DNA of 64,000 bases from Chrysomallon squamiferum. Lineage: Eukaryota > Animalia > Mollusca. The notes beneath the pieces were generated by a model. The model ran no database searches, was not told the DNA's origin, and saw nothing but the letters and a program-made list of their open reading frames with translations. Below, piece by piece: positions 1,516 through 3,755 of the stretch; within the stretch, counting starts at the first letter, position 1, and every line of letters starts with the position of its first letter. The stretch is from NCBI GenBank assembly GCA_012295275.1, contig CM022665.1:49154975-49218974 (forward strand). The letters are read 5' to 3'. Both the position numbers and the translations under genes were made by a program.

Positions 1516-1911
1516 TAACAAAGCTGTTTACACACACGGTGAATCAACTTTTCTATTTTCAGTCGTAAGTGAAACTCGTACACATCTAACAAAAACTCTC
1601 AATTTTCTATCTCGAAATCCTCAGTGGATGCTTAGAAAGAATTCATCCTTAAACATGAAAAATACGATTCAAGTTACGCGGTCTATACATCCAATAAATG
1701 AGCATGGCAATAAAATATTGATATCTCGTAGTTTCATTATTGTCCTGGTTTCGTTGTCAAAGAGTGTTTGTCTGTCTGTAACTTTATGGATTATTCTAAT
1801 CTGAATGAGTACTACAGGAATATAAAAGGTGAAATACAATTATTTTCTTATAAACGTAAGCTGATCTGAATTTAAAACATTATTTTAATATTTATATTAT
1901 TTAATTTACAG

Positions 1912-1992
1912 GTTTGATCCTTCACCCAGTGGAAATCATGAAACAGAATGTTTATTTACTACCAAAGACAGTTGAATACATCACAACAGAAG
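1912..1992 (+). CDS. 81-nt phase-1 exon, GLILHPVEIMKQNVYLLPKTVEYITTE
   Basis: tacAG acceptor, AG|gtatgt donor, other two frames contain stops. Confidence 0.72.
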
Positions 1993-2125
1993 GTATGTAC
2001 AATTTAATTTTGGTTTTTTACAATTTTGTAAAATTAATAATTTTCGAAAGATGATAATTTGGATATTCATGCTTCGTAATGATCTTTGACTTCAAAACAT
2101 TGGTAAAATGTTGATTGTTTTGTAA

Positions 2126-2380
2126 TCTCTCTCTCTCTCTCTCTCTCTCTCTCTCTCTCTCTCTCTCTCTCTCTCTCTCTCTCTCTCTCTCTCTCTCTCT
2201 CTCTCTCTCTCTCTCTCTCTCTCCCTCTTTCTCTCTCTCTCTCTCTCTCTCTCTCTCTCTCTCTCTCTCTCTCTCTCTCTCTCTCTCTCTCTCTCTCTTT
2301 CTCTTTCTCTCTCTGTCTTTCTCTCTCTCTCTCTCTCTCTCTCTCTCTCTCTCTCTCTCTCTCTCTCTCTCTCTCTCTCT
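2126..2380. repeat. (TC)n microsatellite
   Basis: Direct observation. Confidence 0.98.
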
Positions 2381-3028
2381 GTATATATATATATTATGAC
2401 TTTTATTATTATTTCTGAAATGTCCTGTGTATCACAGCAATTAATATATTTGTAAAATCTGTTTTTGAGAATGTTGCAGACACGGTGAAACGCCTTTTGT
2501 ATTTCGTATCGTAAGTGAAACACATACACCTCTAACGAAAACATTCAGTTTTCTATCTCGAAGTCGTCTGTGGATGCTTCGAAGGAATTGATCCTTAAAA
2601 CTCAAAATCTCGATTCTATTTACACGGTCTATCCATCCAATAAATGTGCATGGCAATAAAATAGTGATATCTGGAAATTCAGTAGCTTACAGGACCCTGT
2701 CCTGATCATTACGTGACTCGTGTCTTTGAATTAACGAACGTCAACTTGTGTAATATATCTCAATCAGCAGAATGTTTGTGAGTGATTTCGAATCATTACA
2801 AGTCAGACAATGTTTCCTTGTTTCAAAATTATCATAACAGGTAACCTCAGAGTTTCATTAATGTCCTGTCTCCGCTTTCAAATAGTGTCTGTCTGTGACT
2901 ATTTGCATTTTTCTAATCTGAATGAGCACTGCATGAATATAACAGGTGAAATATGATTATTTTCTTATAAACGTAAGCTGATGATACGTTTAAACGTTTT
3001 ATTTTGATTTATATTTCTGAAATTACAG

Positions 3029-3106
3029 ATTTAATCCTTGAACGAATCCAAAAGATGCACAAAGTTTATTTGCTATTAAATGCAGTTGAAAGCATCACAG
3101 CAATAG
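3029..3106 (+). CDS. 78-nt phase-1 exon, DLILERIQKMHKVYLLLNAVESITAI
   Basis: ttacAG acceptor, AG|gtatgt donor, open in phase 1. Confidence 0.7.
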
Positions 3107-3674
3107 GTATGTTGAGTTTAATTTTTTGCTTTACAAATTTGTAATTATAATAATTTTCGAAAAAAGACGAAGGAACACAAGAAGTAGTAATAAGTAGTAT
3201 ATTATTACACGATTAAAGATTGTTACTTTAGTTTCATATTTTATCTAACAAGTGACCCTTGCTTTATTAAAACGTAATTTGGATATTCATCCTTGGTAAT
3301 GATACCTGACTTGAAAGGATTTTGACCTTTTCAATTCTTTTGTAACCATTATTTTTATTTATTTATTTACTTATCTCGAACTCGCCTGTTGATGCTCAAA
3401 AGAATTCATCTTTACAACTCATAATCTCGATTCAAGTTACGCGGTCTATACATCCAATAAATGAGCATGGCAATAAAATATTGATATCTCGTAGTTTCAT
3501 TATTGTCCTGGTTTCGTTGTCAAAGAGTGTTTGTCTGTCTGTAACTTTATGAATTATTCTAATCTGAATGAGTACTACAGGAATATAAAAGGTGAAATAC
3601 AATTATTTTCTTATAAACGTAAGCTGATCTAAATTTAAAACATTATTTTAATATTTATATTATTGAAATTACAG

Positions 3675-3755
3675 GTTTGATCCTTCAACAAATGGAACTC
3701 ATGCAACAGAATGTTTATTTACTACAAAAGACAGCTGAATACTTCACAATAGAAG
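3675..3755 (+). CDS. 81-nt phase-1 exon, GLILQQMELMQQNVYLLQKTAEYFTIE
   Basis: ttacAG acceptor, AG|gtatgt donor, paralogue of 1912-1992. Confidence 0.72.

Follow-up and report, generated by a model that had tools for sequence, protein, structure and literature searches.

At the 5' end of the DNA analysed here (the window, 64,000 nucleotides from Chrysomallon squamiferum), two sister exons differ at nine bases while the introns in front of them are almost identical. This raises the question of whether the exons have been driven apart by diversifying selection, or whether gene conversion has homogenised the introns and spared neutral exons, the two readings that the first-pass annotation had left side by side. 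These explanations are often confused, and the present case separates them. Our verdict is that the exon repeats of this locus are real and spliced, encode an orphan protein and are under diversifying selection, and that shuffling is superimposed on this.

Anatomy and splicing of the array

A profile of the repeat unit, run over the window, identified eight acceptor-bearing units (U1 to U8) within positions 1–6513, and a ninth relative at 45.3–45.9 kb that is without an exon. Seven exon copies of 78/81 bases in phase 1 span 351–6513. Five of these (U1, U3, U4, U5 and U7) are 78 or 81 bases long and have a CAG acceptor, a GT donor and phase 1 at both ends, and so display the features of a symmetric-exon repeat array: a length divisible by three, equal end phases and canonical splice sites. 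The other three of the eight units are broken, U2 having lost its donor, U6 lacking an exon, and U8 having a CAC acceptor and being truncated. The exons are mutually divergent (11–50%) with conserved introns between them, and TC runs occur within the array at 1409, 2126 and 3999. The units, together with two small exons further downstream, are as follows.

351..428, + strand: U1, predicted 78-base phase-1/1 repeat exon (CAG acceptor, GTAATT donor, open frame)
1106..1176, + strand: U2, repeat exon, its donor gone through an 18-base deletion in the assembly (from alignment)
1665..1911, + strand: intron block 5' of U3, with 4/247 differences from 3428–3674
1912..1992, + strand: U3, 81-base phase-1/1 exon, first sister (CAG/GTATGT; exact in DNA runs X2 and X3)
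1993..2125, + strand: intron 3' of U3, with 7/133 differences and a 110-base deletion relative to U5
3029..3106, + strand: U4, 78-base phase-1/1 exon, joined to U5 in X5 and X9 RNA contigs
3107..3674, + strand: U4–U5 intron, 568 bases, GT..AG (RNA joint 3106/3675; ends checked)
3675..3755, + strand: U5, 81-base phase-1/1 exon, second sister (present without mismatch in X9 RNA, where its neighbours in the contig are U4 and a U7-like exon; DNA runs X1, X2 and X3 also have it exactly)
4771..4830, + strand: U6, U4-type acceptor without an intact exon behind it (stop after three codons; similarity to U4 extends no further than the acceptor; the X9 contig leaves it out)
5408..5488, + strand: U7, 81-base phase-1/1 exon (in X9 RNA, U5 is followed by a U7-like exon that differs at 1 of 30 bases)
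6445..6513, + strand: U8, exon resembling U4, acceptor CAC, interrupted at 6513 where a 24-base tandem repeat joins it
45074–45128: S1, second copy of S2, 55 bases
46316..46366, + strand: S2, phase-1/1 exon of 51 bases whose acceptor is of the U type (in RNA, a relative is joined onto a U3/U5-type exon)

S1 is 4 bases longer than S2, so that its inclusion would shift the frame. In the DNA runs, the summed contig depth was about 10–60 times higher on intron than on exon parts; a depth sum is not a copy number, but the excess may reflect a much larger set of units whose introns are conserved.

Eleven sequencing runs were considered and five were compared with the array, over the stretches 2382–3998 and 1640–2125. 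The RNA evidence consists of contigs rather than reads, from which the level of expression is not readable. Runs X10 and X11 (organism B) contain almost none of the sequence words of the array. In both X5 and X9, RNA contigs omit the intron between U4 and U5, and a single 305-base X9 contig carries, in succession, a U2-like exon with an intact end that is spliced to U4 (one difference), then U5 (no differences) and a U7-like exon, with U6 skipped. The copies are therefore spliced serially and not as alternatives. In a mutually exclusive exon cluster of the Dscam type only one copy is present per transcript, and such an arrangement was rejected because adjacent copies are joined in the RNA contigs. 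X5 RNA also shows a U3/U5-type exon onto which a relative of the small exon (45074/46316) is spliced.

The two sister exons also recur in DNA from several runs. Exact U3 and exact U5 contigs are present in X2 and X3 (1640–2125), so the differences between the sisters are not sequencing errors. DNA run X1, which may be the source sample of the window, contains an exact U5 and a contig with the 16 U3 differences. Depth sums point to a U3-type 5' end in an X5 RNA contig, and to two further X5 variants that mix the same nine sites. When four runs were compared on U3, the variable exon places listed were the nine non-synonymous sites only. Differences in neighbouring exons were seen at loose contig ends (one in U4, one in U7, two in the U2-like exon and two in the small exon), each of them changing a residue according to a manual reading.

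Two joints in X5 RNA differ from the order of exons in the window. One, 1990 to 1910, connects a U5-type end to a U3-type start (allele types being assigned from depth sums), and represents either a haplotype with another exon order or a back-spliced circular RNA. In the other, a U3/U5-type variant (1912–1976) stops 15 bases short with the frame kept, and the U4/U8-like exon that follows it is absent from the window.

Selection on the exons and exchange between introns

A recount of the sister pair (1912–1992 and 3675–3755) upheld the description given by the first-pass annotation. The exons differ at 9 of 81 bases (1925, 1927, 1929, 1935, 1941, 1963, 1972, 1980 and 1987), and in the sole stop-free frame all nine changes are non-synonymous (H/Q, P/Q, V/M, I/L, K/Q, P/Q, V/A, I/F and T/I), with no silent change. 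The upstream intron, for which about 4 differences in some 240 bases had been noted, has 4 in 247 (1665–1911), only one of them within 1665–1867. On the 3' side, 5 of 63 bases differ (1993–2055), followed by 110 bases that are absent from U3 and then by 2 differences in 70. Upstream of 1665 the two units cease to be sisters, their kinship beginning abruptly at that position.

Taken alone, this pair is weak evidence, and selection is unproven by it. The exon differs from the upstream intron at p 0.0007, but comparison with the 63 downstream bases gives p 0.58 and with all 133 downstream bases p 0.18, while upstream and downstream introns differ from each other at p 0.019. Under neutrality, nine non-synonymous changes out of nine have a probability of 0.06–0.12. 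The contrast with the upstream intron is probably inflated, as exchange probably explains the single difference in 1665–1867. Neighbouring BIR 5' exons likewise diverge beyond their own introns, with a neutral-like ratio of 12 non-synonymous to 3 silent changes, so an exon-over-intron contrast by itself proves nothing here. These BIR exons have 52% GC and 10 CpG, compared with no CpG in U3 and U5. They had been considered as a control for purifying selection and were dropped on account of the neutral-like ratio, and three BIR 3' comparisons (16658, 27589 and 32750) were excluded as being ungapped across a frameshift or junction.

Stronger evidence is provided by the seven copies together, each of 22–26 codons (U6, having no exon, was excluded), with the reservation that all models assume a single tree although the units recombine. 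The proportion of non-synonymous changes exceeds that of silent ones in 20 of 21 pairs, which are not independent of each other. In a codon model, dN/dS was 3.3–5.8 in all 27 settings (gap place, frequency set and tree, with three choices of each), each with p ≤0.001. With mutation rates derived from the introns it was 3.14 (95% interval about 1.5–7.5), a value reached by none of 107 neutral simulations, the highest of which gave 1.69. From the exon alone, dN was 1.93 and dS 0.49. The ratio was 4.08 without U3 and U5 and 4.50 without U7, but only 2.63 (p 0.029) when restricted to the five copies whose splice sites are intact. U2 and U8, which are possibly dead in the assembly, contribute to the signal. 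Pseudo-codon controls from the introns gave 1.04, 0.64 and 1.44. A site model placed 93% of sites at a dN/dS of 3.4 (p 0.002).

The frame in use has no stop in any of the seven copies, for which neutral drift gives a probability of 0.002–0.017; the other two plus-strand frames contain 1–4 stops per copy. A second young pair, U4 and U8, shows 13 non-synonymous changes and one silent change next to an upstream intron with 4 differences in 150 bases, and yields p 0.015–0.025 when pooled with U3/U5. The dN/dS over all copies, which had been proposed as a check, is greater than 1 across the seven, and diversifying selection on the exon gains its support once they are pooled (dN/dS 3.1–5.8, significantly >1). 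This ratio, together with a dS not above that of the neutral flanks, is what diversifying selection would leave, within the bounds of a small sample and the single-tree assumption.

The competing reading supposes that the exons are neutral or relaxed (a linker, or part of a dying gene), and that the introns have stayed similar through conversion or recent duplication, in tracts bounded by the acceptor. Breakpoints near splice sites are indeed real, as the identity of U4 and U6 stops at the acceptor, and the introns downstream of U2 and U5 are almost the same while the adjoining exons show 24 differences in 69 bases. It is also consistent with the contrast between one difference in 1665–1867 and five in the 63 downstream bases, with the three broken units among eight, and with a p of only about 0.1 for nine out of nine by itself. 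However, a neutral exon would accumulate silent and replacement changes at the same rate. The total tree length was 1.41 for exons and 0.66 for introns, where base composition predicts an exon only 1.1-fold faster. In a joint model of exon and intron, the silent exon rate was 0.65–0.91 of the intron rate, not different from 1, with a dN/dS of 3.4–3.7, and a neutral exon with a faster clock was rejected in all six settings (p 0.0001–0.0004). The excess of dN over dS, moreover, requires no comparison with introns at all.

Since the silent sites track the introns, the acceleration of the exon is not merely a product of intron conversion, and homogenised introns around a neutral exon are rejected as the sole cause; we consider that explanation unlikely. 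With regard to gene conversion, which the first-pass annotation had suggested should be checked, exchange with breakpoints near splice sites did prove to be real, but it leaves the excess of amino acid changes unexplained. The units have clearly been shuffled, with breakpoints in the introns, which are mosaics.

Mutation bias, alignment or the small sample is very unlikely to have produced the elevated dN/dS as an artefact. There are about 17–20 silent sites per pair, A/C transversions account for five of the nine U3/U5 changes, one 3-base gap had to be placed, and one of the three intron pseudo-codon controls (0.64) departs from 1 at p 0.03. Against this, the signal is stable over the gap places, frequency sets and trees, it is kept with intron-derived rates while neutral simulations do not exceed 1.69, U3 and U5 contain no CpG, and composition accounts for a 1.1-fold difference only.

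It is extremely unlikely that the assembly set two alleles of a single exon in tandem as U3 and U5, their nine differences being a balanced polymorphism: a 569-base X2 contig does show the upstream context of U5 followed by an exact U3, a joint found also in X3 and X5, but this contig spans 124 identical bases and may be a graph chimera, the X5 junction 1990 to 1910 (with alleles assigned from depth sums) indicates both types in cis, the upstream context of U3 itself is found in X1 and X3, and the other five copies would still require selection.

The encoded repeat and its possible role

Each exon encodes a repeat of 26–27 residues, for which AlphaFold predicts a single helix (pLDDT 91.9), a frequent outcome for short peptides. 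U3 has two prolines within the predicted helix, a hydrophobic face, which an amphipathic coiled-coil repeat would have in every copy, is significant in 2 of 7 copies (hydrophobic moment above that of shuffled sequences), and only positions 1 and 16 (Leu) are invariant across the seven. Homology searches are weak for a query of 26 residues. Within that limit, Pfam gave no family at E ≤1 for any of the seven exons, a PDB profile search gave a best E of 0.99 (chance level), 945 word-sharing candidates gave none at E ≤10, and a collection of 5.8 billion sequences gave no relative. Three matches among 1.84 billion representatives were all low-complexity repeats of unrelated proteins, and the best ESM Atlas value, 0.76, was uninformative. 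The intron pattern had no match among metagenome contigs, no signal peptide was located, and among the papers listed by literature searches none dealt with this repeat. Resemblances to UBA, CAP/SCP, IQ, BH3 and LRR motifs were considered and dropped as Pfam gave no support. The repeat unit appears to be new but of a known evolutionary kind.

The sperm bindin of the Pacific oyster has tandem exon-encoded repeats under positive selection, intronic recombination, a variable number of repeats and CT/GA microsatellites in its introns (PMC5712786). Each of its repeats is an F-type lectin domain, and the eight sites under selection lie at a sugar pocket (PMC5712786). The present array resembles it in being from a mollusc and in its tandem exon repeats, positive selection, recombining introns and TC runs, but differs in that each repeat is a predicted helix of 26–27 residues without a Pfam match and most of its sites are fast. 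The repeat does not belong to the F-type lectin/bindin group, as none of the seven exons matches a Pfam family at E ≤1 and the model is a single helix. In the fungal NWD genes het-d and het-e, repeats are exchanged within and between genes and are under positive diversifying selection (PMC1805685); these are WD40 repeats behind a NACHT domain, homogenised and with four selected residues per repeat (PMC1805685). The exchange of repeat units under diversifying selection, as in HET-E, is shared, whereas the repeats here are exons of 11–50% divergence between conserved introns. Nor does it belong to the NWD/HET group (WD40 and NACHT), there being no Pfam match and a helical model.

Exons far more divergent than introns have been described in the duplicated families of snake three-finger toxin and PLA2 genes (PMC2474615) and of conotoxin genes (PMC3862624). 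The array shares this exon-over-intron divergence, but venom genes are separate, secreted and cysteine-rich, while the copies here are exons that are serially spliced into one transcript and have no cysteine frame. Tandem clusters of IAP genes (BIR/RING) are known from molluscs (PMC7831173, PMC13159474), and six tandem clam IAPs are under purifying selection, with Ka/Ks of 0.08–0.45 (PMC7831173); the passages of PMC13159474 consulted mention neither "positive selection" nor "coiled". The remainder of the window holds a cluster of this kind, in the same orientation as the array, but the repeat exons are without a BIR match and, unlike them, the clam IAPs are under purifying selection.

We favour as the probable explanation that the sister exons are two young copies in a tandem array of frame-preserving exons, which provide a series of predicted-helical repeats that are likely to be under diversifying selection and to form a binding surface in an arms race. 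The copies are spliced serially into repeats of 26–27 residues. Introns that are almost identical would allow unequal crossing-over or conversion to break within them and so to duplicate, drop and reorder whole exons with the frame kept, after which selection would fix new residues in each copy. Judging from the behaviour of genes with such a signature, the helical series may be the arm of a recognition protein, and by analogy we infer an immune or recognition function for the repeat. A proportion of fast sites as high as 93% is unusual for a folded binding surface, and the two prolines in the predicted helix of U3 likewise count against this explanation. The searches gave no homologue or domain in favour of a recognition role. 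The partner is the least certain part; a microbial or viral ligand would be our first guess, on account of the neighbouring IAP cluster, and a gamete or self/non-self partner the second.

The repeat protein is expressed but unannotated, and the positive selection on it points to an arms race in a mollusc that has gone unrecognised. A homology search would miss this gene, and the array resembles repeat DNA. Because each repeat comes from a single exon (about 27 residues) and varies naturally among several animals, short peptides can be used to test for binding partners.

The surrounding IAP cluster

Outside the array, the window consists of a rearranged IAP cluster in the same orientation (Pfam BIR), for which the nearest named proteins are from Haliotis in two of three matches (BIRC7-like). 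U/S-type units lie just 5' of BIR arrays twice in the window, on the same strand, and the end phase of S2 is compatible with the start of the BIR 5' exon. Pfam found no BIR domain in the U exons, and in the comparison over 1640–2125 and 2382–3998 no displayed loose contig end was traced to a BIR exon. It is possible, though doubtful, that the array supplies a snail ubiquitin ligase of the IAP type with a hypervariable arm. This arm would be a helical sensor or decoy, shuffled exon by exon, pressed by pathogens or symbionts and spliced in front of BIR and RING. Such a protein would be an apoptosis regulator with an evolving recognition module.

Several other features of the window were noted. 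At 44640–44760 a possible small exon can be seen by eye (acceptor- and donor-like ends, open frame, tyrosine motif), which a crude exon scan did not report. Tandem arrays of a 1.58-kb unit occupy 8560–19748 and 46755–52832, in about 7 and 4 copies, the units being 99% alike within the first array and 96–97% alike between arrays. Each unit has split BIR exons and small linker exons, and a few copies are apparently frameshifted (16658, and near the end of 15583). The arrays either code for a poly-BIR IAP or result from a recent amplification. One 24-base purine-rich tandem repeat occurs twice, at 6528–8561 and 53803–56240, and its second copy begins in frame in an acidic IAP-like exon, as an 8-residue repeat, and is then frameshifted.

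Several whole or partial IAP genes (BIR, a small exon, and a RING exon at 28641–28793) are found at 26490–35800 and 56240–58800, where they are block-duplicated and where BIR fragments are fused into intergenic DNA. A 39-base tandem repeat is present inside a duplicated block at 37020–37376 (9 copies) and 60286–60606 (8 copies). Finally, a 2.8-kb block is duplicated at 92% identity (21228–23971 and 38222–41025), 5' of two IAP-like genes, and may contain their promoter and first non-coding exon.
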